In this document: positions 26,814-40,068 of the stretch, one piece after another
Position numbering within the stretch: the stretch's first letter is position 1
How the letters are laid out: every line of letters starts with the position of its first letter
Assembly: GCA_965222115.1 (NCBI GenBank)
Contig: CBDCTJ010000003.1
Span: 32,001 to 96,000 of the forward strand
Length of the DNA stretch: 64,000 nt
Direction: 5' to 3'
From: Planctomycetota bacterium
GTDB lineage: Bacteria; Planctomycetota; PLA2; JAEUHO01
Translations under genes and position numbers: made by a program
The notes under the pieces: generated by a model
Database searches by the model: none
Told to the model about the DNA's origin: nothing
What the model saw: the letters and a program-made list of their open reading frames with translations, nothing else

Positions 26814-27338
26814 ATGACAACAATCCTTGCGCTCCGCCACGGGGGCAAAACGGTGCTCGGCGGCGACGGCCAAGTGACCCTCGGGCAACAGATTCAAAAA
26901 CGCGGCGCGGTCAAAGTTCGCGCCCTCATGGATGGCCAAGTCCTCGCGGGCTTTGCGGGCGGTGCCGCCGATGCCATGTCGCTCATGGAGCGCTTCTCAG
27001 CCAAACTGGATGAGTTTGGCGGGCAGCTGATGAAGGCCGCCGTCGAACTGGCCAAAGAGTGGCGTTCGGATCGTGCGCTTCGGCGACTCGAAGCCGTGTT
27101 GATTGTGGCCGACGCTAAAGAACTTTTGCTCGTCACGGGGACGGGCGATGTGATTTCGCCCGACGATGGCGTGGTGGCTACAGGGAGTGGCGGTGCCTAT
27201 GCGCTGTCGGCCGCGCGCGCGTTGATGCGTCATGGATCGCTGGATGCAAAGGCGTTGTGCACAGCCGCGCTCGGCATTGCCGCGGAGATCGATCTCCATA
27301 CCAATGATTCGCTCACGGTATTGGAGGCGAAAGCGTGA
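26814..27338 (+). CDS. hslV: ATP-dependent protease subunit HslV
   Basis: MTTI N-terminal Thr, GDGQVT, GFAGGAADA and GSGG. Confidence 0.97.
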   Translation: MTTILALRHGGKTVLGGDGQVTLGQQIQKRGAVKVRALMDGQVLAGFAGGAADAMSLMERFSAKLDEFGGQLMKAAVELAKEWRSDRALRRLEAVLIVADAKELLLVTGTGDVISPDDGVVATGSGGAYALSAARALMRHGSLDAKALCTAALGIAAEIDLHTNDSLTVLEAKA

Positions 27339-28753
27339 AACTACCCACCGGCAAGCGCACGGAGTCCGCGAAACGACAAAGCGGATGTGAACTAACGCCC
27401 TCGGAAATCGTGCGCGCGCTCGATCGGCATGTCGTGGGTCAAAAACAAGCGAAACGCGCCGTCGCGGTGGCTATTCGCAATCGATGGCGTCGCATGCAAC
27501 TCGACAATGACATGCGCGCCGAAGTATTGCCGAAGAACATTCTTTTGATCGGTGCCACAGGCGTGGGCAAGACTGAGATTGCGCGGCGCATTGCTAGTCT
27601 GATCGGCGCGCCATTCACTAAGGTCGAGGCAACGAAGTACACCGAAGTGGGTTATGTCGGTCGCGATGTAGAAAGCATCATTCGCGATCTGACGGCGAGT
27701 GCGATGACGCTCGTCAAAGCATCGGCCAAGAAGACGGTAGAAACGAAGGCAGCCGAATCCGCAGCATCGAGAATTCTCGACGCCCTGGTGAACGCGTATA
27801 AGCCCGGCGATCCCGATCTTGATCCGCTGGGTCTGGGCAGAGCGGATGACACGAGCGCAGTGACCGACCTATCGGCCGTGCGCATCAAGCTACGTCAACG
27901 TTTGCAGGCCGGCGCACTGGAAGACCGAGAGATCGAGATCGATGTGCAGAGCACCGCATCCACGCCCCTCGGCAACATCTTCGACAATCCATCGTTTGCA
28001 CAGTCCGGCATCGATTTCTCGAAGATGTTTGAGCAGGTCGCGCAGCAAAGTACGTCGAGCAAACGCATGACGGTGCGCGAGGCGCGCAAAACGTTGATTG
28101 ACGAAGAGGCGGAAAAGCTTGTCGATTCGAGCGACGTAGAAAGTGAAGCCGTGAAACTCGTCGAAAATCAGGGCATCGTGTTCCTCGACGAGATCGACAA
28201 GGTGGCGGGATCGGATCGCACACAGGGCGCCGATGTATCGCGGCAGGGTGTACAACGCGATCTGTTGCCGCTCGTCGAGGGCTGTACAGTTCACACGCGC
28301 TTTGGCCCCGTATCAACCGACCACATTCTCTTTATCGCGGCCGGCGCGTTCCATGTGAGTAAGCCAAGCGATCTGTTGCCCGAGTTGCAAGGGCGACTGC
28401 CCATTCGCGTGCGCCTGGACAACTTGCGCGAAGAGGACTTCGTGCGCATACTCAAAGAACCAAAGAACGCGCTCACGCGTCAATACGAAGCACTCCTCGC
28501 AACCGAAGGCGTGCGCATACGATTCGCCGACGATGGCATCGCGGAAATCGCTCGCGTGGCCGCAGCAGCCAATGCACTCCACGAGAACATCGGCGCCCGT
28601 CGCCTCAGCACGGTCATGGAACGCGTATTGGACGAAGTCTCCTTCGAAGGCGGCTCCCTCAAGGGCCGCGACGTCGTCATCGACCGCGCCTACGTTGTCT
28701 CCCGCACCCACGACCTCCTCGAAGACCAAGACCTAGGCCAGTTCGTCCTCTGA
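27335..28753 (+). CDS. hslU: ATP-dependent protease ATPase subunit HslU
   Basis: GATGVGKTEIARR, GYVGRDVES, FLDEIDK and ENIGARRL. Confidence 0.97.
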   Translation: MKLPTGKRTESAKRQSGCELTPSEIVRALDRHVVGQKQAKRAVAVAIRNRWRRMQLDNDMRAEVLPKNILLIGATGVGKTEIARRIASLIGAPFTKVEATKYTEVGYVGRDVESIIRDLTASAMTLVKASAKKTVETKAAESAASRILDALVNAYKPGDPDLDPLGLGRADDTSAVTDLSAVRIKLRQRLQAGALEDREIEIDVQSTASTPLGNIFDNPSFAQSGIDFSKMFEQVAQQSTSSKRMTVREARKTLIDEEAEKLVDSSDVESEAVKLVENQGIVFLDEIDKVAGSDRTQGADVSRQGVQRDLLPLVEGCTVHTRFGPVSTDHILFIAAGAFHVSKPSDLLPELQGRLPIRVRLDNLREEDFVRILKEPKNALTRQYEALLATEGVRIRFADDGIAEIARVAAAANALHENIGARRLSTVMERVLDEVSFEGGSLKGRDVVIDRAYVVSRTHDLLEDQDLGQFVL

Positions 28754-28922
28754 TGCGCCCAAAATACCTGGTATTCGTGGCGCATGGTTTCCCCGCGGAA
28801 TCGCAGACACCGGCGCGAGCGGGCCATTGCTTGGAGCGCTAGCCTGCGATGCGCCAGAAATACCTGGTTTCTGTGGCGCACGAGCGTTTCGTGCGCCAGA
28901 TTTACCTGGTATTTGTGGCGCG
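28754..28922. repeat. Three copies of a 31-bp imperfect palindrome (REP-like)
   Basis: Copies at 28754-28784, 28850-28880 and 28892-28922. Consensus TGCGCCAGAAATACCTGGTTTCTGTGGCGCA. Confidence 0.85.
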
Positions 28923-30386
28923 CTCGGAAGCGCGCTGACCGAAGAGGGCGGCGTGGTATTCGGATTCGGTCATGACTTCGGTGGTGGTTGGGAGCGGGCC
29001 GGGTTGACGATCTTCGGAGGTGTTTTCCATTGCGTCGGGAATCACCGTGACCATGCGTCGAGGGGTGCGCACGTAATCGCGCTCGGTGATGCGAGAGCCG
29101 GGCTTCACGAGAATGTCCTTTGTGCGGTAGCCATTGGCGTGTTGCACGGTGCGGGTGCCAATACGCTGTTTGATGTAGCGAACGCCTGCGTATACGCGCG
29201 ACACGGACTCCCCCACCTTTACGCGCTTTCGGCAGGTCCCGCTGGGCACCTTCTGTGTCGTGTATCCCACAATACGTACGTCTTTACGAGTTCCGACTTG
29301 GTATTTCTCACGCTTGGTCCCGTCAGGCAATTGCTCAATCTTTATTCCCGTAACGCGACGAACCTTGCGCGTGCCCTCTTGCTTCCATCGCAGTCGCACG
29401 CCCATTTTCTTCTTCGTTCGCTTGTGACCGGTCAGCGTCTTGAACCGCTTGGTCCCCTGCAGCACTTCCTTTTCTTCGTGACCGCAGACACGACATACCT
29501 CATCGCCCGTAACGCAATCCTTGATGATCTCACGCTTGGGCACTTTGACCGTGACGTAGTTGGGTACCTCACCCTCTTCGTACTGAGGCTCCCACACTTC
29601 GCGCGTAGCCGGCGTACGTTCCGTCTTCAGAACGGGAAACTCGACATCCTCATACTTATAGACCTTGCGCGTACGCTTGACAGGAACCTCGCGGTAATCG
29701 TAAATCGCAACGTCTACCTCTTTGTAGGTGGGCACTTCGCACGTTCGGTAGGTCGGCACGGTACGCCACTCGTACTTGGGCGTACGAACCGTGCGATAGC
29801 GCGGCACTTGAATAATGCGATACACAGGAATGTCGATCGTGTCGCAAATGGGGATCTTCTTGGTATAGGCACACCCAGGGCAAATAGTCTCTTTCTCGAC
29901 CCAGCGCCCCATGGCAGGAATGATGGCGATATAGGGCTCTCCCGATGTACCTGCTTCGTCATCCGTAGCCCGCTGCGTGCTTGTGTCGCGCCTTTCTCGT
30001 CCGGCCCAGTCTTTGTCAGATTCGGCTCGTTCACCGCCCGCACCGGGAATGTCACCACTTCCAACAACGGGATCGCCGTCTCTTGCCTTCGACGCAGCGT
30101 TACGCGTCGCGGCTCTCCTAAGCGCCTCTTCGACTGCTCGTGCGGTCGCTGTGTCGTGCGCCGACGGTTCAGGCGCCACCCCACCACCCAACGTTCCGTC
30201 ACTCGACGCTGCGCCACCCGCGGGTTCAACCGCACCATCCGGTGCCACTTCCCCCCCGGGCGGTATCGGCGGAACCGGTTCACTGCCGGGCGGCTCATCG
30301 GCGTGGGCCTGAGGAATGAGCGCGAGAATCGCCGCGAGCGCGAACACCTGAACGATAGGCCATGCGCGTCTTCGTGTCTGAATCAT
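28902..30386 (-). CDS. Secreted basic periodic beta-rich protein A (YTV/articulin-like composition)
   Basis: SD GGAGG, signal peptide ending AHA, 14 xPxY-type octamers, Cys turn, 14 Gly-ending units. Confidence 0.85.
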   Translation of the reverse strand: MIQTRRRAWPIVQVFALAAILALIPQAHADEPPGSEPVPPIPPGGEVAPDGAVEPAGGAASSDGTLGGGVAPEPSAHDTATARAVEEALRRAATRNAASKARDGDPVVGSGDIPGAGGERAESDKDWAGRERRDTSTQRATDDEAGTSGEPYIAIIPAMGRWVEKETICPGCAYTKKIPICDTIDIPVYRIIQVPRYRTVRTPKYEWRTVPTYRTCEVPTYKEVDVAIYDYREVPVKRTRKVYKYEDVEFPVLKTERTPATREVWEPQYEEGEVPNYVTVKVPKREIIKDCVTGDEVCRVCGHEEKEVLQGTKRFKTLTGHKRTKKKMGVRLRWKQEGTRKVRRVTGIKIEQLPDGTKREKYQVGTRKDVRIVGYTTQKVPSGTCRKRVKVGESVSRVYAGVRYIKQRIGTRTVQHANGYRTKDILVKPGSRITERDYVRTPRRMVTVIPDAMENTSEDRQPGPLPTTTEVMTESEYHAALFGQRASERATNTR

Positions 30387-30505
30387 GGACCGCCTCCACT
30401 GCTTCGATCGGAGAAATGAAGGCGCACCTTCACCACCACCAAACGTATTGGACGACGACCGTGTGCGCCTCTTGTGGATCCGCTACGGATGCACGGGGCG
30501 TAGAT

Positions 30506-31939
30506 CTACTTCGAAATGGCCTTGCGGATGGCGTTTCCTGCACCACCACGAGCCATTGCCGTGGCATAGGCCGATTCATATTGGGCCAATGTCATCACTT
30601 CCGTAGTTCCTGGAAGTGGCGATGCGTAGGCGGCACCATTGGCCACCACCGTGACCTTGCGCGCCGGAACACAGACGATGTCGGCCACGCGCTTGGTACC
30701 CGGGCAAATGGGCGTCTTGATGGTGCGGTACCCAACGATCTTCTTGGTCTCTTTGTAGCCCGCCAGATAGCGCTTCATTTCCCAACCGCACTGAATCTTC
30801 TTCGCGCGTTCGCCCGCTCGCACCTTGATCGTTTTGGTGCCGTTGTAGACCTGCTTCGTTTCGCAGTCTTCACACTCACTCACTACGGTCTCGCCGGCAG
30901 GGCGGTGGGTGACCGTATGGGTGAACAGCTTCTTTTCCGTTCGGTAGCCCGCGTGCTTACGCACAGGTGCGTACCCTACGAATATGCGTTCCTTCTTATT
31001 GCCCACCAGGACGCGCTTGGTCTCCCATCCATCGTCCACCTCTTTGGTTTCCATGTGGATGAATTTTTGTGTCTTCCAGCCGCAGGGCACCTTGCGTGAC
31101 TTCGCGCCGACCTGGAGCTCACGACCGGTGTATCCCGCGATAAATGGAACGCGCTTCGTCCCCACGCATACCTTCTTATTGACCCACCCGGCGGGCATCT
31201 TCTTTTCGCATTCGCATATCTTGACGGTTTTACGATCTACGCACTCTTCGCAGGTCCCGCACCCGCCAAAGTACTTCTCGCGGATCTCCTGTGTACCCAA
31301 TACGGGCTCTTTACAGGTCTTACAGACCGGCACACGGATGTAATCGTAAATGGGTTCGTCGCGATAATCGTAGTGCGGGGTTTTCTGATTCTCATACTGA
31401 GGAATCTGGACGGTCTTGTAAATACGTACACGCCGCGTGCGAGTGACAGGAACCTGAATAGTCTTCTTCTTGGGTACGAGTTTTTCCTCGTACACCGGAC
31501 GATCCACCCAACGGTACTGGGGTACATTGACGATCTTGGTCTGGGGCACCTGCTCATCGATGTAGTGTGCTTCGGTGCGCTTGGCCATAAGCGGCTTGAT
31601 CACGCGCTTGGTCTTGGGACGCGTAACAGTCTTCCAATCGGGGACATAGCGCTCTTCAAAGATCGGAATGATCTTGGTCTCGTACTTGGGCACCCGCTTG
31701 GTCTTGTAGACGGGCGTCTTGATGGTCTTGTAGATGGGCTCTTTGCGAACGTGGTTGTCGCAGGGCGTTTGCTCAGTGCGGTAGACCGTGCGCATATGCT
31801 TGGGGATCACTTTGACGCAGCACTTGCGTTGGCCCGTGACCAGCGACACATCGGCCGAGGCGGTCAACGCCGACGTTGTGATCAAAAATGCCGACACACC
31901 GAGTGCCAGGACCCGCGCCGAAATGGGGCTCGAGTTCAT
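30506..31939 (-). CDS. Secreted basic periodic beta-rich protein B, paralogue of A
   Basis: SD AGGAGG, signal peptide ending ASA, 19 octamers, Cys-rich turn, about 19 mostly Gly-ending nonamers. Shares the PLPxTTEVMT C-terminal motif with A. Confidence 0.85.
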   Translation of the reverse strand: MNSSPISARVLALGVSAFLITTSALTASADVSLVTGQRKCCVKVIPKHMRTVYRTEQTPCDNHVRKEPIYKTIKTPVYKTKRVPKYETKIIPIFEERYVPDWKTVTRPKTKRVIKPLMAKRTEAHYIDEQVPQTKIVNVPQYRWVDRPVYEEKLVPKKKTIQVPVTRTRRVRIYKTVQIPQYENQKTPHYDYRDEPIYDYIRVPVCKTCKEPVLGTQEIREKYFGGCGTCEECVDRKTVKICECEKKMPAGWVNKKVCVGTKRVPFIAGYTGRELQVGAKSRKVPCGWKTQKFIHMETKEVDDGWETKRVLVGNKKERIFVGYAPVRKHAGYRTEKKLFTHTVTHRPAGETVVSECEDCETKQVYNGTKTIKVRAGERAKKIQCGWEMKRYLAGYKETKKIVGYRTIKTPICPGTKRVADIVCVPARKVTVVANGAAYASPLPGTTEVMTLAQYESAYATAMARGGAGNAIRKAISK

Positions 31940-32120
31940 CTTGTCCTCCTGGGCAAAGCGGGCATCACGCCTTGGTGGCTAAGGCGGACCGCACCTCCCT
32001 GCTGCATGGGCGCGTCCTTGGACAGCGCCGCGCGCGGCAAGGTATCACATCCGGCCTGAAGTTGCTCGGAGTGGAAGCGGAGAAGCATACAAAATCGAAA
32101 CAAGACGCGCATTGCCGGGC

Positions 32121-32918
32121 TCAGCGACTTGCAAGGATGCGTCGGGCGATGGCGGCTGCCCAGGTCCTGGGCACAAAGCGCTGCGTGAAGACGAGCAGCT
32201 TGTTGGTAAGGCCGGGCACCACCTCCATGCGCCCACGCATGAGGGCCTTCACACCTACACGGGCCACGCGATCGGCGGGCATCCGCATATTGAGTAGACC
32301 GGAAAGGTTGCGATATCCGGCCGCATCAAAAAACTCGGTGTCGGTCACGCCGGGGCAGAGCGCCGTCATAGCGACGTCCGTGTGTTTGAGTTCTTGATGG
32401 ACCGAGTTGCTCCAGCCAAGAAGGAACGCTTTGGTGCCACCGTAACCGCTCTGGTATGGCGCCGCTTGAAACCCCGCAACGCTTGAGACATTTAAGATGC
32501 CTCCGCGATTGCGTTCGAGCATGCCCGGCAAGAGATTGCGTGCAAGCACGACGGACGCCGTCACATTGAGATCGATCATCTTGAGCGTGCGCTTAAGGTT
32601 GGCGCGATCGAAGCGACCGGGTACCGAGAATCCCGCATTGTTGATGAGCACGTCAATGTCGCCCAGCGACTCGTGCGCTTTCAAGAGTACGTGCTCGGCG
32701 CCCTGCGGAACCGAGAGATCTGCTTCAATGGCATGCGCTGTCTTGGCACCTCGTTCCAAGAGGATGGGCAACAGGGCTTGCAATCGATCGCCCCGACGCG
32801 CGGTGACGCAAATGCGTGCATGGCGATCGGCAAGCAGCAGCGCGATCTCGCGTCCGATACCGGAACTCGCACCAGTAACAAGGCAGCCGAGGTCGTCAAA
32901 ACTCTTGATGCGTCCCAT
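32121..32918 (-). CDS. Short-chain dehydrogenase/reductase
   Basis: TGASSGIG, NNAG, NVSS and YGGTK. Confidence 0.93.
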   Translation of the reverse strand: MGRIKSFDDLGCLVTGASSGIGREIALLLADRHARICVTARRGDRLQALLPILLERGAKTAHAIEADLSVPQGAEHVLLKAHESLGDIDVLINNAGFSVPGRFDRANLKRTLKMIDLNVTASVVLARNLLPGMLERNRGGILNVSSVAGFQAAPYQSGYGGTKAFLLGWSNSVHQELKHTDVAMTALCPGVTDTEFFDAAGYRNLSGLLNMRMPADRVARVGVKALMRGRMEVVPGLTNKLLVFTQRFVPRTWAAAIARRILASR

Positions 32919-32948
32919 GCAATCGATTCTAGCCCGAAACCTGCGTAC

Positions 32949-35900
32949 TCATTCGACGAGCGATCGCCAATTCGGAGGGTAACGTTGAAGCAACTCGGCG
33001 CGTGCCAATGCTTCGCAGAGTCGCCTTGTTTCGCGCAGCCGCTCGCCGTCGATGTCGATGGGCAACTCCACCGGTTCACGACTCCATGACGGATCAAGCA
33101 GGACCAGCGCAGCGCCAGCGATATCGGTACCGAGAACTCGCTCGGCCATCAGCGCATAGAGTCGCAGTTGCCACCCGTAGTACGCCTCAAGAGAAGCGGG
33201 CGACGGAAAACGATCAGAACGCGTATTGGTCTTGTAGTCGAGCACCCACACGCCGTCCTTACGAGGCAGCCACAAGTCGATAGACCCTTTGACGAGCAGT
33301 GAATCGAACCCGGCCACGGTCTTCTCGGCCCCCGCCACGGTCGGAAAGCGAATGCGCGCATGAAGATCCAATTCGCGTTGCGGCGGTGTGCCGCGTCCCG
33401 CGAGGGCTGTCTCAAGCTCTTGCGCAAGTGGGCACTCGAGAAATCGGTAGAGCAGGGGCGCCACGGCGGCCTTTACCTCGGCGTCGGCATAGGGCTCCAA
33501 CGCCACCGCACAGTCCAAGGCCCGCGCGGCATCTTTGGCGAAGGGCGGGCGAACAAACTCAAGGGCGGCGTGCAGCGTGCGGCCAATGGCGTCACGCGGA
33601 ATGGACGTGCCCGATTTACTGGCGACGTCGGTCGCGAAGCGTTCGTCGAGTGCGCGCCCGGCGTGTTGTTCGTTCACGAACCCAGTTGCAGGCAGCGCAT
33701 ACCGGTCGGGCGAGTCGTCGGTCGCGTTAAGCAACGTCGACTGTGAATTGGCGCCCAATACACAGTGGCGGTAATACTCAGAGGGGCTCTTCGCAAACGT
33801 AAGCAGTTCGGACACGCTCACAACGTAGCGCGTGCGTCTCAGGGGCGCGACGTGTCCCTCGATGCGCCGCATGTGCTCGTCGGCCTCGCGAGCAGCTTCC
33901 TTTTTCAACGCAACGGGAATCGCGGGTGGCCACGACGCGGATTCGGTGGCACGCGATGCACCGCTGTCGGCGGGTTCCAGTTCGGTTACAGACACCCGCA
34001 TCGTGCCCGCGCCGAGCCGAACGTCGTATTCATCTCCCGGCGGTGGTTCGCCCGCTAGCGCGTCGAGCATCAAGCCCCATGGACCGGATCGAGCGGGCGC
34101 GCCTTTTTGCGTTCGGTGGGAAAATTGTCCGCTCAGATACAAGCGCTCCTCAGCGCGAGTGGTGGCGACATAGAAGAGTCGCATCAACTCCTGTTGTTCA
34201 GCCTCGGATCGCTTGTTCGCCAAGACACGGGTTCCGCTCGGCATGCGTTTCACGCCCTCGATGGGGTCTGATAGTGCGACGCCCAAGCCACCCGTAGGCG
34301 TGAGCAACACCGATGGTGAACGGGCCGACGTCATGCGCGTCACATCGGCGATGAACACAACCGGATACTCAAGACCCTTGGCTGCGTGAATCGTGCTCAG
34401 ACGGACTACGTCTTGTCCTTCTCCACCAATCGGCGCATCGTGTTCGGTTTCTCCCTGCGCGCGAAGGTTGGCGACGCGCTTCAAGAACTCGGGCACACTG
34501 TGATGCCCCTGCTCATCCATTGCGGCTGCGAGCGCAACGGCCTTATGTAAGTTCGCGCTGCGACGCGCCCCGCGAATCAAGGTCAAGCTAACAGTGTGCA
34601 AGTCGAGTGCATCGATAACCGCTTCCAGGCACGCCGCGAGTGACAACGTGTGTGCGCGTGCCTGAACGCGGGCAAAGGCATGCCAACGAGCCGCGATGGA
34701 TGCATCGAGCGAGGCATCGGCCAAAATTCGTTCCCAAGCCGCACCGTGTCCATCACCAAACCAGCGGTTGACCGCCTCATCATCGGCCGCCAAGGACGGA
34801 CTCGTTGCGAGCGCGGCAAGTGCAAAGCGATCGGCTGGGTTATGAACCACACGAAGCGCGTAGATCAAATCGCCAATCTCGTCGGCAAGGTAATACCCTC
34901 GACTCGACTGGGTCAGATAGGGAATGGCGCGCTGCGTTAGCGCATCTTCAATGGAACGCAGAGACGCGCGGGCACGTACGAGGATGGCAATGTCGCGGTA
35001 TTCAATACCACGCGGTGCATCAGTTCCTTTCGTTAGCTGATCCGTTCCCGATACCAACTTATGGATGTGCCCCGCGATCCAGTTGGCTTCGGCCTTACGG
35101 CGACGATCGGTTTCGGCCTGCTCCCCTCCTACAACGAAGTGAAGTTCGCAAACGGGTGATTGATCGTCCGCCTCACGCGTTGGCGTGGCAAACGTGCCGG
35201 CAGCGTTCAGCGCTTGGAACGAAACGCCCGCGGTGTTGGGGGTCATGAGCGCCTGTCCAAGACCATTGAGCGTATCGAGGAGCTCGGGCGATGTGCGATA
35301 ACTGTTGTCGAGCACGTGCCGCGCGGCCTCGTCTACATACTCCCACTCGTCCAAAAGCACACGTACATCCGCTTTGCGAAACCCGTAAATGCTCTGCTTG
35401 GGATCCCCCACCGAAAACATGGCGGCACCGCGTCGCAGAAATCCCAACAACGTTGCCTGCAGGCGACTCGTGTCCTGGTATTCGTCCACCATCACAACTT
35501 TGGGTGCACCGCGCAACGGGTGTCCACGTTTTGCCAATCTGCTGAGCAATGCGAGCGAGCGCACCTCTAAATCTGTGAAATCAAGTGCGCCGCGCGTTCG
35601 CTTGAGTGCCTCATAGGCGTCATAGGCGTGAGTTGTGATGCGTTTGAGGGGCTCAAACAGATGGCTCTTTCCCCAATCACTCCACAGCGCGTCTTCGATC
35701 TGACCGAGCAATCGAGCGAGTTGCTCCTTATGAGGCTTCCAGAATTTCCCCGCGCTACCGACCTGCCCCGGCCACTTGGTGCAGTCGGAGCGGCTGAATG
35801 CCGTCGGAGACAGTTCGTTGCGCGCCAACTGCTTGATGAGCGTGCTCAGTTGGTTGCGGCAGGCGGGCCATTTGGCGCCCTGCGTCTTGGTGAACTGACT

Positions 35901-36581
35901 CCCTCCCAACTCAATGTCATTCACTGCAACAAGCAATTCTTCAAGCAGCGATGTGGCGTCGCGCTCGGGTTCGATCCAGTTCAGCTCGTCGGGATGCAAT
36001 CCATCATTTCGCAATGCACGAATCACGGCCGTGACGGCGGCCTTGGCGCCAAGTTGTAGGCCGTTTAGCGCCAGCAAGTCGTTGGGTGCGTTCGCCCGAA
36101 ACACCCCTAGCGCTTGATCCACCGCCTCGTCCAACAACACGCCGGCTTCGGCACTGTCGAGTACAACGAAGAGAGGATCCACACCGGCGACAAGGGCCTC
36201 TCGCCGTACAAGACGGGCGCAGTAGCTATGTATGGTTGCGATGGGTGCAAACTCGACTTGAGCGCGCGCTTCACGGAGCCATTCTCGTTCCTCTCCCTCC
36301 GCGTCGCGCAAGGCGGATTGAATCGCACCCGCCACCCGGGTTCGCATTTCACCAGCGGCTTTCTCGGTAAATGTGAGGGCGGCAATTTCGTGTGGCGAAA
36401 ATTTGTGGTCGCGAATCAAGTGGACATAACGCGACGTGAGAACGCGCGTCTTTCCCGAACCAGCGCCGGCCATGACACACGTATCCACGGGCGGCGCCAA
36501 CGCCGCTCTACGTTGCGAAGGAGAGAGCGCTTCAAAGCCCCGCGAGTCGCCACCGTCTTTCATAGCCGCATCACCGTTCAC
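32949..36581 (-). CDS. addA: AddA-like UvrD helicase with C-terminal PD-(D/E)xK nuclease
   Basis: AGAGSGKT, TFTEKAA, VDEYQD, VGDPKQSIYGFR, TIHAAKGLEY, YVATTRA and GSIDL..DYKT. Confidence 0.85.
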   Translation of the reverse strand: MNGDAAMKDGGDSRGFEALSPSQRRAALAPPVDTCVMAGAGSGKTRVLTSRYVHLIRDHKFSPHEIAALTFTEKAAGEMRTRVAGAIQSALRDAEGEEREWLREARAQVEFAPIATIHSYCARLVRREALVAGVDPLFVVLDSAEAGVLLDEAVDQALGVFRANAPNDLLALNGLQLGAKAAVTAVIRALRNDGLHPDELNWIEPERDATSLLEELLVAVNDIELGGSQFTKTQGAKWPACRNQLSTLIKQLARNELSPTAFSRSDCTKWPGQVGSAGKFWKPHKEQLARLLGQIEDALWSDWGKSHLFEPLKRITTHAYDAYEALKRTRGALDFTDLEVRSLALLSRLAKRGHPLRGAPKVVMVDEYQDTSRLQATLLGFLRRGAAMFSVGDPKQSIYGFRKADVRVLLDEWEYVDEAARHVLDNSYRTSPELLDTLNGLGQALMTPNTAGVSFQALNAAGTFATPTREADDQSPVCELHFVVGGEQAETDRRRKAEANWIAGHIHKLVSGTDQLTKGTDAPRGIEYRDIAILVRARASLRSIEDALTQRAIPYLTQSSRGYYLADEIGDLIYALRVVHNPADRFALAALATSPSLAADDEAVNRWFGDGHGAAWERILADASLDASIAARWHAFARVQARAHTLSLAACLEAVIDALDLHTVSLTLIRGARRSANLHKAVALAAAMDEQGHHSVPEFLKRVANLRAQGETEHDAPIGGEGQDVVRLSTIHAAKGLEYPVVFIADVTRMTSARSPSVLLTPTGGLGVALSDPIEGVKRMPSGTRVLANKRSEAEQQELMRLFYVATTRAEERLYLSGQFSHRTQKGAPARSGPWGLMLDALAGEPPPGDEYDVRLGAGTMRVSVTELEPADSGASRATESASWPPAIPVALKKEAAREADEHMRRIEGHVAPLRRTRYVVSVSELLTFAKSPSEYYRHCVLGANSQSTLLNATDDSPDRYALPATGFVNEQHAGRALDERFATDVASKSGTSIPRDAIGRTLHAALEFVRPPFAKDAARALDCAVALEPYADAEVKAAVAPLLYRFLECPLAQELETALAGRGTPPQRELDLHARIRFPTVAGAEKTVAGFDSLLVKGSIDLWLPRKDGVWVLDYKTNTRSDRFPSPASLEAYYGWQLRLYALMAERVLGTDIAGAALVLLDPSWSREPVELPIDIDGERLRETRRLCEALARAELLQRYPPNWRSLVE

Positions 36582-39500
36582 GATGCGCCCTCATCGGTTG
36601 GGGACTCGCGAACCCGGTCGGGCTCGGCAAATCGGCAGATGGGCACATAGGCGCAAGTGGCACACGTGTCTTTTCGAATGGGGTTTTTCGTGTGCTTACC
36701 CGCTTGAATGGCTGTGATCAGATTGTTGGCGCGTGTCTTTGCGCTGCTTAGCACCTCGCGAAACGCGTTTCGATCGCGAACCTCTGGCTTGGTGCCTTCG
36801 CGTCGAACGTCGGCCTCGGATGCAATCGTGTCCGCGGCAATGATCCTACGCTTGCGCTCGCGTAGGGCCACCCACTCCATGCCAACAACGTTTACCGCGT
36901 CGAGTGATTCCAGAGCGAGCGCATACAGGGGAAGCTGCAAGTCTTGCGTAGCAAGTGTGCGCTTGAATGCAACGTCACATGTGGTGGCCCCGGATTTGTA
37001 GTCCACGACAATGACGTCATTGCCATGTCGATCGATGCGATCGATCTGACCACGTAGCGAAACGGCACCCATCGTGGCCGGTTCATCGTAGCCAAACTTG
37101 CGTTCAAGCCCTTTGACGTCGGGCGTGTGTTTCGCAGAGGCGATGCGATCTCTCAACAATAGAACGACGCGCACCAGTTCGCCCTTCAGCAGATGGGCAT
37201 CGACATCGGATACGACATGATCTCTGCTCTTCAGATATGCAAGGACATTATCCGCAATGGATGTGGGGGTTGCACTCGAGTCACGTACCGCGAACTCAGC
37301 CGCCTTGTGCAGTGCGCTGCCGATGCCACGGGCATCGAACGCGGGGGCTTCGAAACTCAATTCATCCTCGGGCAAGCGCAGCACGCGCGCGTACCAAAAC
37401 TGATGAAGGCACGACACGGCTTTTCCAAGCGCCGACGCGGAAAGGGCGTGGGTCGCGTTTACAAAGGAACGCAACGCTTCGCTACCTGGTTCGCTCGCGA
37501 ACAGGGGGGTAGCAACGGGTCGCGATGGATCTCGAAGTCCCTGCGCGCCAAGCATCGCGTTAAGTGTCTCGGGGGACGACCGTTTAAGTAGGGCCACCGA
37601 ACGCGCGATCAACGCCGATTCATGAGTACCCGTTGACGCGACGCCGCGGGTGGACCCCGCGAGCATGGACGTGGCGTACTGCCGAATGTCATCTTTGGTG
37701 TGGCAGAGATGAAGGGGCGCGGTGCTGTGCTCATCGAGTTCCGGCGATGTAATCACGATGAGCTTCACCAATGCGGTAAGCTGATCGAGAAATAGCGATG
37801 CCGCGCGTGGTGCACCCTTGTCATCAAATCCGGCCCGCGACACCACGAGTGTGTTTTTGGCTCGAGTGACCGCGCCATAAAACAAACGTCGCTCTCGATC
37901 CTGCTTGGCGGCCGTGGTGGGCAGATGGAGCCCGCTTGACGTGGCGGCAAGTGCCAGGCGCTCTTCATCGGACAAAAAGAGATCTTCATTGGGTGAACGA
38001 GGAAACGACCCCGATTCCAGGCCCGCCACAACAACGAAGGGCAACTCCCAAAACCGCGCATCGTCCACGGAGAGAATGCTCACCGCATCGAGTCGTTGGT
38101 CGGTACGCGACACCTCCGACGAAGCAATAGCTTCGTCGACCTGTGCGAACACGGTTTCGCGCGTTAGCAACGCCTCCTCACCCATTCTGACCGCGGTACG
38201 TGCAAGCGATTCAAGAATGGTTGAAAGCCGACGGCTCGCCGCTTGAGCCCAGGCACCGGCAACGTCGGTTTGTACGTCTTCGATTGCCCCTGTTGCGGAT
38301 ACCGCGCCCCCCATCGGCACGGGCACCAGCGAAAGGAGTGCGATGCCGAATGCCTCAAACACAGACGCCGACCCTTCGTTTGACTGACACGCCGCAGCAA
38401 ATTCCTTCAAGTGATCGATGCGCGCGTGAAGGCATGCAGGTGCACGCTTGCGGTAATCCTCAAACGTTGGCGGTGCGCCGCCCTCGCGCTGTTTGAACTC
38501 GTAACCGCGCAATGCCCACATTAGATCGGCTCGTGATGCGGGATCGGTGTCTTCACCGACTTCAGCATCATCGACGTGCCACGATAAGCACCAGTGCAAC
38601 CACGCGTTTAGTGCGTGTGCGTCAAATGTTGGCGCACGCGTGTGTCCACCAAGAACGCTGAGGGGGCCGCGACACGCGCGTATCCAAGGCGATGCCGCGA
38701 GCGGTTCACCGCGACCCACCAATCGAAATGGAACTCCGCGGCGACGTAATGCCCGACCGATAGCGCGAGCGCGTCCATCCAGTTGGCGCAATACGATGCC
38801 CACATCGCGCCATCCACGAATGCCGTGAGACTCTTGCTTGGCGTAAGCACTGCGAAGCACACGTGCAATGCGCTCGGCTTCATCCGCCTCGCCCGCGCCA
38901 ACAATTCCGAACACGTGCCTTGCAGCTTGTGCGATTGGCGCATCGGCGATCGCCGCGTCAACTCCGGTTTCGTGTTCGTCACCAAACAACCGATCGGCGA
39001 TTCGCCGAAGTGGCTCGTGTGGGCTTCGTCGACTCCCGTCTAGCGAAGATTCGTGAAATCCAAAGCCAAGCAGGCGGGCGCGTGTGGCCGCAGAACTACG
39101 AAACAGGTGCGGACGACGTGGATCCCACGGCAAGGTCATGACGACGCGCCCGCCGCCGTTCACTACCAAGTCGCTAAGGCCCTCAAAGATGGTGCATTCA
39201 ACGGGGCTCAGATCGTCAAAGCCATCAACCACAAGCAGCGATGGGACCGAGGCCTGAGTCTGGGCTGCGAGTGACACCGAGAGCTCACGCAACATGTCTT
39301 CGTGATCGCGAAGGCCGGCCCCGTGCAGGCGAGTCTCATAGGCACGGAAGACGTTCATGCAGGACGCAATGCTCTGCGCACGACTTTCATGTAGCGCCGA
39401 TGATGCCTTGACGAACTCGGCCGCAATCTGCTCGAGAGGGAGGCCAGATTGCTTGAGTTCCTTTAGCCACTGCAGCAGGCGTTCGCGCAATCCCGGCAGG

Positions 39501-39880
39501 TCGTCGAGCGATGCGAACAGGGGATCGGCGACGTCGGCAAGGGCCTTGGCCATAAAACGATCACGTTCTTCAAACGTCGGCAGCGTGTGAATACGAAACG
39601 AGGGAAGATAGCGCTCAGCCGCAGCCGTGAAGGTAACGAAGGGCGCATCGAGAATGCCGCGCGCCCCCCAACGCGAAAGCGCCAAACGCTTGGTGTGCAT
39701 GACCTGCGCATAGGTAGGTAGCACAAGCAACGTCTGCGCGCTGAAGTCCACCGCATCGCCGTGGTCGGCTGAGCGCGTCGCAGAAGCACGAATCAACTCA
39801 AGCGCGAGATGGGTCTTTCCGCTTCCCGCGGGGCCGCTGATCAACGTCAGGGGAGTCCGAGCATATTCGGACGCCTTCAT
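36578..39880 (-). CDS. addB: AddB-like helicase/nuclease subunit
   Basis: SD GAGGAG plus ATG 39880. GPAGSGKT, degenerate helicase motifs, RGQIDRID..DYKS. Cys before the nuclease domain plus CxxC..C at the end (Fe-S staple pattern). Overlaps addA by 4 nt. Confidence 0.82.
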   Translation of the reverse strand: MKASEYARTPLTLISGPAGSGKTHLALELIRASATRSADHGDAVDFSAQTLLVLPTYAQVMHTKRLALSRWGARGILDAPFVTFTAAAERYLPSFRIHTLPTFEERDRFMAKALADVADPLFASLDDLPGLRERLLQWLKELKQSGLPLEQIAAEFVKASSALHESRAQSIASCMNVFRAYETRLHGAGLRDHEDMLRELSVSLAAQTQASVPSLLVVDGFDDLSPVECTIFEGLSDLVVNGGGRVVMTLPWDPRRPHLFRSSAATRARLLGFGFHESSLDGSRRSPHEPLRRIADRLFGDEHETGVDAAIADAPIAQAARHVFGIVGAGEADEAERIARVLRSAYAKQESHGIRGWRDVGIVLRQLDGRARAIGRALRRRGVPFRLVGRGEPLAASPWIRACRGPLSVLGGHTRAPTFDAHALNAWLHWCLSWHVDDAEVGEDTDPASRADLMWALRGYEFKQREGGAPPTFEDYRKRAPACLHARIDHLKEFAAACQSNEGSASVFEAFGIALLSLVPVPMGGAVSATGAIEDVQTDVAGAWAQAASRRLSTILESLARTAVRMGEEALLTRETVFAQVDEAIASSEVSRTDQRLDAVSILSVDDARFWELPFVVVAGLESGSFPRSPNEDLFLSDEERLALAATSSGLHLPTTAAKQDRERRLFYGAVTRAKNTLVVSRAGFDDKGAPRAASLFLDQLTALVKLIVITSPELDEHSTAPLHLCHTKDDIRQYATSMLAGSTRGVASTGTHESALIARSVALLKRSSPETLNAMLGAQGLRDPSRPVATPLFASEPGSEALRSFVNATHALSASALGKAVSCLHQFWYARVLRLPEDELSFEAPAFDARGIGSALHKAAEFAVRDSSATPTSIADNVLAYLKSRDHVVSDVDAHLLKGELVRVVLLLRDRIASAKHTPDVKGLERKFGYDEPATMGAVSLRGQIDRIDRHGNDVIVVDYKSGATTCDVAFKRTLATQDLQLPLYALALESLDAVNVVGMEWVALRERKRRIIAADTIASEADVRREGTKPEVRDRNAFREVLSSAKTRANNLITAIQAGKHTKNPIRKDTCATCAYVPICRFAEPDRVRESPTDEGAS

Positions 39881-40068
39881 GGCTCTCCTCGATTCCGATC
39901 GGTCGCGCGGGTCGAATGCGGTCCCATTCGATCCTACAAAAATGGGGCGGAGCATATTGTCATCGGGGACGGACAGCCCTGTGACCAAGGGAACGTGAAA
40001 CCCGGGAACGCTACTTGCTGGGGTCTCGCTCGATCGTTAGGGTGTCTCCCTTCGACCTGGAGCAACCC

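Follow-up and report, generated by a model that had tools for sequence, protein, structure and literature searches.

A pair of tandem genes encoding putatively secreted, highly repetitive proteins lies in a 64,000-nucleotide stretch of DNA from Planctomycetota bacterium (GTDB lineage Bacteria; Planctomycetota; PLA2; JAEUHO01; assembly GCA_965222115.1, contig CBDCTJ010000003.1, positions 32,001 to 96,000 of the forward strand). This whole stretch is called the window here, and all coordinates refer to it. Both genes are on the minus strand: gene B, the upstream member, is an open reading frame (ORF) of 477 amino acids (aa) at 30506..31939, and gene A, the downstream member, is an ORF of 494 aa at 28902..30386, with 119 base pairs (bp) between the two. 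A first-pass annotation, made from the letters and their translations, took the products for paralogues, each folding back on itself into a single giant β-hairpin in which a strand of 8-residue Pro-based units (octamers) runs out and a strand of 9-residue Gly-ended units (nonamers) runs back. The paralogy is borne out by BLASTP (E = 3e-22, 25% identity over 456 columns), and computational evidence supporting the hairpin interpretation is presented below.

Both proteins begin with a hydrophobic N-terminus that, judged by eye, is a putative Sec signal peptide: residues 1-29 of B (31853..31939), ending in TASA before Asp, and residues 1-29 of A (30300..30386), ending in QAHA before Asp. In B this is followed by an N-terminal base segment (CC..VIPK...; residues 30-67, 31739..31852), which precedes the first octamer and is modelled by AlphaFold2 (AF2) as short strands, and by an outgoing arm of 19 octamer slots, 17 of them with Pro (residues 68-219, 31283..31738). 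The Cys/Gly-rich tip REKYFGGCGTCEEC, seen in the translation and predicted with low AF2 confidence, occupies residues 220-233 (31241..31282). The return arm of 9-residue units together with its closing 11-mer, YRTIKTPICPG, extends over residues 234-414 (30698..31240), and the conserved C-terminal base, comprising PARKVTV, PLPGTTEVMTLAQY and a terminal helix, over residues 415-477 (30509..30697).

In A, a Pro/Gly/Ala/Asp/Glu-rich aperiodic linker (residues 30-150, 29937..30299), missing from B and unconserved in the alignment of A-type proteins, is inserted between the signal peptide and the N-terminal base segment (YIAIIPAMGRWVEKETICPGC...; residues 151-178, 29853..29936), in which AF2 places strands at model residues 3-7 and 10-19. 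The outgoing arm has 14 octamer slots, 12 of them with Pro (residues 179-290, 29517..29852), and falls inside the predicted strand 173-289; the turn, CVTG, comprises residues 291-294 (29505..29516). The return arm consists of one 8-residue unit and 13 nonamers, all ending in Gly, and the 11-mer YRTKDILVKPG (residues 295-430, 29097..29504), and the C-terminal base again carries a P.R.VTV motif (PRRMVTV), PLPTTTEVMTESEY and a terminal helix (residues 431-494, 28905..29096). Long open frames also lie over A and B on the opposite strand (28827..30419, 30362..31099 and 31373..32059, all plus), one of which, 530 aa long, covers the whole of A. Since homology, signal peptides and synteny are all found on the minus-strand frames, the plus-strand frames are regarded as shadow ORFs of a high-GC repetitive gene.

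The repeats are strict. In A, Pro recurs at residues 179, 187 and so on to 283 at a spacing of exactly 8, the slots at 227 and 243 being without Pro; no Pro stands out of phase inside this tract, and the next one after 283 is at 354. Beyond the DCVTG turn, Gly recurs from 302 to 419 at a spacing of exactly 9, in 14 of 14 slots, and once more at 430 (+11), just as the first-pass annotation had described. In B, Pro is spaced by 8 from 68 to 212, and beyond the Cys-rich tip, GGCGTCEEC, Gly is spaced by 9 from 251 to 403, with one 8-residue step and three Gly-less slots, and stands again at 414 (+11). Two extra 9-residue slots before Gly251 end in Cys (233 and 242), which by eye brings the return units to 18-19, where about 19 had been claimed. 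When each protein was shuffled 2000 times, the best in-phase run of Pro at period 8 never exceeded 6 in A and 5 in B, against 12 and 17 observed, and that of Gly at period 9 never exceeded 7 in A and 6 in B, against 14 and, in strict phase, 10. Other periods from 5 to 12 gave at most 5 hits in A and at most 7 in B. The closing 11-mers, the P.R.VTV motif and the C-terminal motif of the PLPxTTEVMT type are all present in both proteins. Two statements about composition fit one paralogue better than the other: an aromatic residue often follows Gly in B (Trp or Tyr in 9 of 16 cases) but not in A (two Tyr and two His among 14), and "very basic" describes B (net charge +47) and is less fitting for A (+19). 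A contains 8 Cys and B contains 17. Tandem Repeats Finder detected a single array in the DNA, 24 bp × 1.9 copies, in B; as the DNA of the two genes is otherwise without tandem repeats, the periodicity is held at the protein level. The 8/9 periodicity of A and B is thus confirmed.

The two proteins belong to a family of limited distribution. An exhaustive HMMER search with A retrieved 66 of 1.84 billion representatives at E ≤ 1e-3 and 29 at E ≤ 1e-10, and six-frame searches matched 19 of 24 other genomes from its own taxonomic family, 1 of 11 from a sister family and 0 of 5 from five further families. Members are built alike: the signal peptide is followed by an N-terminal anchor (..IPA....V.R.V.VPAVT..), a run of octamers (consensus P-V-Y-E-T-[R/V]-[E/R]-V), a tip, a run of nonamers (consensus T-R-T-E-R-V-Q-[V/C]-G), a closing unit and a C-terminal domain. 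The C-terminal base, P.R.VTV...PLPGT.EV.TE.EY, is present in A, in B and in the consensus of 30 members, and is missing in a B-like subgroup (P0030, P0032 and P0035). The tip takes one of three forms, namely a tight turn (D-PCTG or x-CTG), a knob of ~21 residues (..WNPF.C...ELW) or a CxxC-rich segment as in B, and it is this last form that P0030, P0032 and P0035 carry. Orthologues of the A type consistently have 14 units and those of the B type 18-19 across four genomes from two genera, B always preceding A; such conservation of unit number within orthologue groups fits a role in which length matters. A third paralogue, L002, is present on the same contig outside the window (G000:C3:221673-225254). 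It has ~13 octamers, most of them without Pro although the spacing of 8 is kept, and 12 Gly nonamers, and it carries Cys/Pro-rich tails at both ends instead of the conserved C-terminal base.

No known family accounts for these proteins. Pfam and NCBIfam scans of A and B gave nothing at threshold, and Pfam scans of seven relatives found no family spanning the repeats. The best hits of a PDB sequence search had E = 2.5 for A and E = 4.1 for a 30-member profile, A2, which includes part of B. A word-index search with B matched B itself and nothing else, and a related-locus search with A alone returned no relative. There is accordingly no full-length match to a characterised family in Pfam, NCBIfam, PDB, Foldseek or BFVD, and no 8/9 hairpin or β-hairpin of this size is described in the literature covered by the search, outside which most subscription journals and supplements lay.

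The first-pass annotation also held that unit counts match on both sides of the turn although A and B differ in length, and the same holds across homologues. Arms were counted as strict in-phase runs with one missing slot allowed, because a chain-finder tolerant of phase shifts over-extended into Pro-rich linkers; proteins were kept if they did not exceed 800 aa, had 5 or more hits per arm, carried the Pro run first and separated the two runs by no more than 60 residues. Removal of exact duplicates reduced 68 proteins to 65, and exclusion of an off-frame ORF (L038_-590) left 64, the filters having dropped B, P0004, P0039, P0054, P0060, the proteins with permuted arms and fragments. Over these 64 proteins, with 5-19 units per arm, octamer and nonamer counts are correlated with r = 0.87, a slope of 1.04 and an intercept of -1.8, and they fall into classes of 6/5, 9/8, 12/11, 14/13, 14/14, 14/15, 18/16 and 19/18. 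By eye, surplus Pro slots are either tip slots (the P of PCTG, or the two P of the WNPF knob) or degenerate first units. Among the full-length members that the filters removed, P0039 and P0060 have 5 octamers and 4 nonamers by eye and P0004 aligns with A; the end of P0054 resembles a frameshift. No member with grossly unequal arms was met among the family members that were read.

How are the two arms arranged relative to each other? Whether the pairing is ANTIPARALLEL and tip-centred was examined first in one homologue, L013 (19/18 units), which has three types of octamer and three types of nonamer. If octamer i is placed opposite nonamer j with i + j = 19, each octamer type meets one nonamer type, as judged by eye. 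Moreover, in either arm the part next to the tip has a 2-unit super-repeat and the part remote from it a 3-unit one, a mirrored order that is predicted by a hairpin and not by parallel pairing. The feature taken from L013, whether or not position 6 of each unit is basic, was then examined in 39 further proteins, drawn from three turn classes (those with gaps of 11, 19 and 20-22) and giving 352 unit pairs, with 2000 permutations of the nonamer order; L013 itself was left out, as were L026, L038_-903 and P0041, which have another tip type. Turn classes were treated separately because a signal in unit net charge was muddled when turn types were pooled. At the tip-centred antiparallel register, position 6 covaries between the arms with r = -0.437, a signal that none of the 2000 permutations equalled (z = -8.0), whereas twelve other shifts gave -0.18 to +0.31 and nine parallel pairings -0.08 to +0.14. 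When the turn classes were taken singly, the strongest negative value fell at the expected register in each, save for a tie at -0.406 with a neighbouring class. Covariation between the arms of the kind foreseen by the annotation is therefore present.

A mutual information scan of all 8 × 9 position pairs over 370 unit pairs, L013 included, points the same way. The summed value was 8.1 bits at the tip-centred register versus 6.2-7.0 in six shifted registers, and the maximum was 0.42 bits versus at most 0.25; the shifted controls use the same sequences and hence have the same relatedness. Eight of the ten position pairs with most excess have the same parity, that is, they lie on the same face of the sheet, and the top pairs form an anti-diagonal band, with position sums of 8 to 12, around the 10 expected if Pro1 faces Gly9.

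Structure prediction yields a hairpin, not a solenoid or a disordered chain. An AF2 model of A residues 150-494, based on 8 aligned orthologues, has a mean predicted local distance difference test (pLDDT) value of 80.0, with 282 of 345 residues at 70 or above. DSSP assigns one strand to model residues 24-140 (A 173-289), a turn to 141-146 (A 290-295, DCVTGD) and a second strand to 147-277 (A 296-426), after which come short strands and a C-terminal helix; these, together with two N-terminal strands, would make the base in the model. The two strands are 117 and 131 residues long with a 6-residue turn between them, a ratio of 1.12 = 9/8, and they differ by 14 residues, one for each unit, which is what a single bulged residue at every Gly would give. 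The predicted structure of B (residues 30-477, 7 sequences) has the same hairpin topology at a pLDDT of 61.4. Its outgoing strand is broken at model residues 84-97 and 128, and these breaks are mirrored in the return strand at 309-324 and 266-275, at tip distances scaled by 9/8. At about 0.33 nm per residue, the modelled rods would be at most ~39 nm (A) and ~50 nm (B) long. When the A model was searched with Foldseek, 0 matches at E ≤ 0.001 were found in PDB (best template modelling (TM) score about 0.1) and in BFVD. A complex prediction for A + B scored 0.00, its controls were not run, and no claim is based on it.

The HMMER matches include natural REARRANGEMENTS, proteins whose arm order is reversed around an insert. 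In P0058 (827 aa), a coiled coil is followed by ~13 Gly nonamers, a head of ~330 aa, ~13 Pro octamers and another coiled coil. The head weakly matches PrgA (6z9k, E = 0.0036), a match to the YSIRK signal is likewise weak (E = 0.0011, 19.2 bits versus a cut-off of 20), and relatives of the protein are named SEC10/PgrA surface exclusion proteins of streptococci. According to the preprint on its structure, the N- and C-proximal parts of PrgA form an antiparallel two-helix stalk of 385 Å with a CAP head at the tip (10.1101/2020.06.18.156562). On this layout, the Gly and Pro arms of P0058 stand where the antiparallel halves of the stalk run side by side. The repeat module of P0058 replaces the part of the coiled-coil stalk that adjoins the head, and among the 120 proteins examined (P0058 and 119 relatives) both runs occur only in P0058 itself.

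Reversed arms are also found in P0062 and P0038, in which an N-terminal membrane helix is followed by Gly units, an insert and Pro units. They belong to a large family that includes a protein of a Bacilli metagenome-assembled genome, with 653 matches among 8000 scored candidates. Among the best 120 of the 653 matches (P0187-P0305 among them), 28 contain both arms as runs of 4 or more hits, and 26 of these place the Gly arm ahead of the Pro arm; most inserts measure 90 or 98 aa. Some members carry PF09479 repeats. Octamers also occur apart from a nearby Gly arm: P0042, P0046 and P0013 are giant Asn-rich fibre-like proteins with 32-34 Pro octamers, and P0046 (4166 aa), which has a Peptidase_S74 C-terminus, has 24 Gly-based nonamers ~2400 residues away from its octamers. 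Judging by these giant proteins, octamer tracts may also work without a hairpin partner. In the sister family, an 827-aa ORF (L139, G026:C53) that matches the model of the YTV wall proteins at 26.7 bits has K/T-rich Gly-ended units of ~15 residues, then Pro-based units and, at the C-terminus, a large domain, and could be a further case of a permuted stalk.

The surroundings of the two genes are partly conserved. Directly upstream of B and on the same strand is a gene for a short-chain dehydrogenase (SDR; 32121..32918, minus; Pfam adh_short, E = 8e-45), followed by an AddA/AddB helicase-nuclease pair, the three together occupying 32121..39988; the SDR gene is a conserved neighbour, and no functional part is claimed for it. 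Downstream, and convergent with A, are genes for a proteasome-type HslV and an HslU-like AAA protein (26814..28753, plus), the nearest relatives of the latter being five proteins of metagenome-assembled Planctomycetota with 64-69% identity. Three genomes of another genus (L121, L122 and L123) show the same succession of AddB, AddA, SDR, B-like and A-like genes, and in a third genus (L126) SDR and AddA adjoin three tandem short members of the family. The SDR-AddAB side is thus syntenic in relatives, whereas the HslVU side is not. None of the neighbouring genes suggests a function for A and B, and a promoter/terminator scan of 28600-33000 gave nothing above shuffles. A search for RNA sequencing runs or proteomes of this uncultured organism found none.

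Matched unit counts, antiparallel covariation, the AF2 fold and the permuted arm orders are four independent kinds of evidence, all computational, and together they support the hairpin interpretation. We consider, with a probability of roughly 0.7, that A and B represent an undescribed family of secreted planctomycete proteins in which most of the chain is one intramolecular antiparallel two-stranded β-ribbon. In outline, the octamer run would form the outgoing strand and an equal number of nonamers the return strand, the extra residue of each return unit being absorbed as a bulge at Gly, opposite the Pro of the partner unit. One Gly bulge per return unit would keep the strands aligned along the 14 units of A and the roughly 19 of B. 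The tip would be closed by a turn that is either tight or rich in Cys, and the N-terminal segment and the C-terminal domain would meet as a small base. With its even period, the outgoing strand would keep every Pro facing outward, and the odd period of the return strand would be reconciled with this by the Gly bulge. Val at even positions, Tyr/Thr at odd positions and ladders of Glu and Arg would stabilise the ribbon as in single-layer sheets, and its ends may be stapled by disulfides or metal through the Cys clusters of the base and of the tip, the latter reading CxxC...CxC in many members. Prolines and bulges are said to protect free β edges, a principle credited to Richardson and Richardson in 2002; if it applies here, a lone ribbon could stay soluble, and a Pro in every 8 residues and a bulge in every 9 would amount to negative design against aggregation of both free edges. 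The product would be a rigid rod, its length fixed digitally by how many units it has. By analogy with the YTV wall proteins and with head-bearing stalks, the role of A and B in the planctomycete envelope may be that of a structural rod or spacer.

Several points weigh against this interpretation. All of its support comes from computation. The octamer-minus-nonamer difference is not exactly zero and ranges from -1 to +5 over the 64 proteins, and its explanation by tip and base slots depends on reading by eye. B stands outside the automated count, since its strict Gly run is broken, and by hand has 19 octamers versus 18-19 nonamers. Because the homologues are kin, the statistics overstate their independence: a tree built from the regions outside the repeats (52 rows, 94 columns) is poorly resolved, with 11 starred branches of 49, and yields only 2 independent pairs. 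In the Bacilli-type family the counts are looser (r = 0.59), lying within 1 of each other in 17 of 28 proteins and up to 4 apart otherwise, and these outliers make the support from that family weaker. The alignments behind the AF2 models hold only 8 (A) and 7 (B) sequences, the predicted TM score (pTM) is low (0.28 and 0.22), and 135 of 448 residues of the B model are below a pLDDT of 50; both models were read as strand assignments, so their register, twist and length are provisional. Cys216 and Cys385 of A, judged by eye, are not opposite each other in the proposed register. Finally, no solved structure contains a free two-stranded ribbon whose strands exceed 100 residues, and the lack of Foldseek matches, which marks the architecture as new, could also mean that the model is unphysical.

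An alternative that accepts the hairpins is that the working unit is an oligomer. Contacts between ribbons, made either by the Val-rich even positions of their faces or along their edges, would then build a rod of two layers, a lattice in a sheet or wall, or an extended β-barrel tube, with A and B as possible partners. Val is indeed frequent at even positions (octamer position 2, 49%; octamer position 8, 55%; nonamer position 6, 44%; nonamer position 8, 30%, plus Cys at 19%), which makes one face fairly hydrophobic for a lone ribbon. Free Cys residues along the arms, the B-then-A order kept in four genomes, and the recovery of the YTV relatives from wall preparations, as stated in PMC8567305, would also suit an assembly. 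The top Foldseek matches, weak as they are (E > 0.03, TM ≤ 0.10), are to proteins that assemble long hairpins into barrels, namely the phi29 tail and cytolysin/lysenin stems. On the edge-protection principle mentioned above, however, a Pro every 8 residues and a bulge every 9 would block edge pairing, and the many charges on both faces make a membrane barrel unlikely. A and B differ in length by five units, which rules out their pairing over the full length, and no computation speaks for an interface. We therefore regard an oligomeric working unit as unlikely, though it deserves to be kept in mind.

It could also be supposed that there is no intramolecular hairpin, the octamers and nonamers being independent fibrous or disordered segments, such as an elastic region of articulin type or a trimeric β-helix resembling the needle of T4 gp5, and that AF2 zips them together because they are repetitive. 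The giant fibre-like proteins with octamer tracts and no nearby Gly arm lend themselves to this idea: P0013, with 32 octamers, scores 35.9 bits against Gp5_trimer_C over the whole protein, no single stretch passing, and P0042, with 34 octamers, has a C-terminus that by eye resembles that of P0046. The shallow AF2 alignments leave room for it, as does a faint match of B to the articulin/alveolin family IMCp (10.9 bits, E = 0.61, against a cut-off of 21.1). Yet A has no IMCp match, and neither A nor B reaches the threshold for either family. Independent segments would leave unexplained why the two arm counts change jointly from 5 to 19, why covariation is confined to the tip-centred antiparallel register, why the two arm types flank the head in the PrgA-like and Bacilli proteins, and why the strands have a 131/117 = 9/8 ratio, and we hold this possibility to be very improbable. 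A and B could, on the other hand, be divergent members of a known family, the YTV cell-wall proteins. They share with it the phylum, signal peptides, the presence of Cys and a layout in two halves; the nearest ESM Atlas clusters are both named "YTV domain-containing protein" (0.80 and 0.79, best scores 0.79-0.81), scores below 0.9 being leads only; and the best YTV match in the six-frame translation of the genome lies in the octamer arm of B (31385-31507). That match, however, has 15 bits against a Pfam cut-off of 21, and hmmscan gave no YTV match for A or B at E ≤ 10 or for P0007 and P0017 at E ≤ 0.1. A survey of 151 genomes from the phylum detected YTV proteins in 8, comprising 6 of 6 genomes of one family, 2 of 4 of the sister family and 0 of 2 of the family to which the present genome belongs. 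By these comparisons A and B are not regarded as YTV members, and of all the readings considered this one receives the least credence, although a distant common origin of the octamer arm with YTV proteins is possible.

Returning to the intramolecular ribbon, a wider proposal can be built on it, to which we give slightly less than even odds: A and B would define a new class of fibrous protein, a monomeric ribbon rod, tens of nanometres long, that grows in steps of ~2.6 nm per octamer plus nonamer and serves both as a portable stalk module, the β equivalent of a stalk made of an antiparallel coiled coil, and as an envelope ruler. As stalk modules, the ribbons would be free rods of 14 and 19 units in planctomycetes and head-bearing stalks in membrane proteins of Bacilli and in the streptococcal PrgA-like protein. 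As rulers, A and B, with their conserved lengths, would serve to space the planctomycete wall or enlarged periplasm at the molecular scale. Both of these elements fall under the same slightly less than even odds as the proposal as a whole.

If the ribbon is real, it would be a β-hairpin with more than 100 residues per strand, an architecture without solved precedent, in which 8 residues out, 9 back and one bulge per unit constitute a hetero-periodic code that keeps the register. It would add a third route to long thin single-chain rods beside the coiled coil and the collagen/polyproline II (PPII) helix, and provide a natural test case for the stability and non-aggregation of single-layer β structure, as well as a design rule for protein nanorods whose length is chosen by unit number. 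For planctomycetes it would point to envelope rods of conserved length in a lineage with a poorly understood wall and an enlarged periplasm. The module beside the PrgA-like head would be an instance of a β-ribbon swapped for a coiled coil in a stalk.

Among known systems, the YTV wall proteins (PF07639) of Planctomycetia are the closest in kind. As in A and B, they are secreted, Cys-containing proteins of the same phylum that are rich in Tyr, Thr, Val, Arg and Glu and have two repetitive halves around a Cys/Gly-rich middle. They are reported to be found in wall preparations (PMC8567305) and may affect wall rigidity (PMC8567305, PMC10632474). Four of them, from other planctomycete genomes (L133, L135, L136 and L141), consist of two halves with Pro-based periods of ~16 residues around a Cys/Gly-rich middle; they have 33-67 Cys per ~450 aa and few Gly, and Pro recurs at spacings of 8 and 16 in either half. 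The differences are clear: YTV proteins have Pro-based ~16-residue repeats in both halves and almost no Gly periodicity, whereas A and B have a return arm of Gly nonamers; they are far richer in Cys than A or B; and the 8/9 Pro/Gly pairing is not found in them. YTV wall proteins may nevertheless also be long hairpins.

The articulins and alveolins (IMCp, PF12314), proteins of the cortical skeleton, resemble A and B in their Val/Pro-rich, charged, short-period repeats, but they are eukaryotic and cytoplasmic, whereas A and B are bacterial and have the Gly nonamer arm; we know of no such arm or hairpin architecture in articulins or alveolins. The triple β-helix of the T4 gp5 type (Gp5_trimer_C) has no match in A or B. 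The central sheet of OspA is a single-layer β-sheet, and its ribbons and those of the ultralong antibody CDR (complementarity-determining region) H3 have roughly ten to twenty residues per strand. In the bovine ultralong CDR H3, a two-stranded ribbon forms a stalk that holds a disulfide knob off the antibody body (PMC8602281). Like the ribbon proposed for A and B, the OspA sheet and the CDR H3 stalk are exposed antiparallel β structures with charged and β-branched residues and no hydrophobic core. They lack, however, a hetero-periodic 8/9 code and a variable number of units, and the predicted strands of A have 117 and 131 residues.

The nearest parallel in overall shape is PrgA/Sec10 (6z9k, 6z9l), in which a single chain likewise runs out and back as an antiparallel stalk of ~40 nm, one that carries something at its tip. 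A and B have a tip of 4 to 14 residues and no CAP-like head, and they are not homologous to PrgA. The stalk of PrgA is an α-helical coiled coil, whereas that of A and B is modelled as a β-ribbon.

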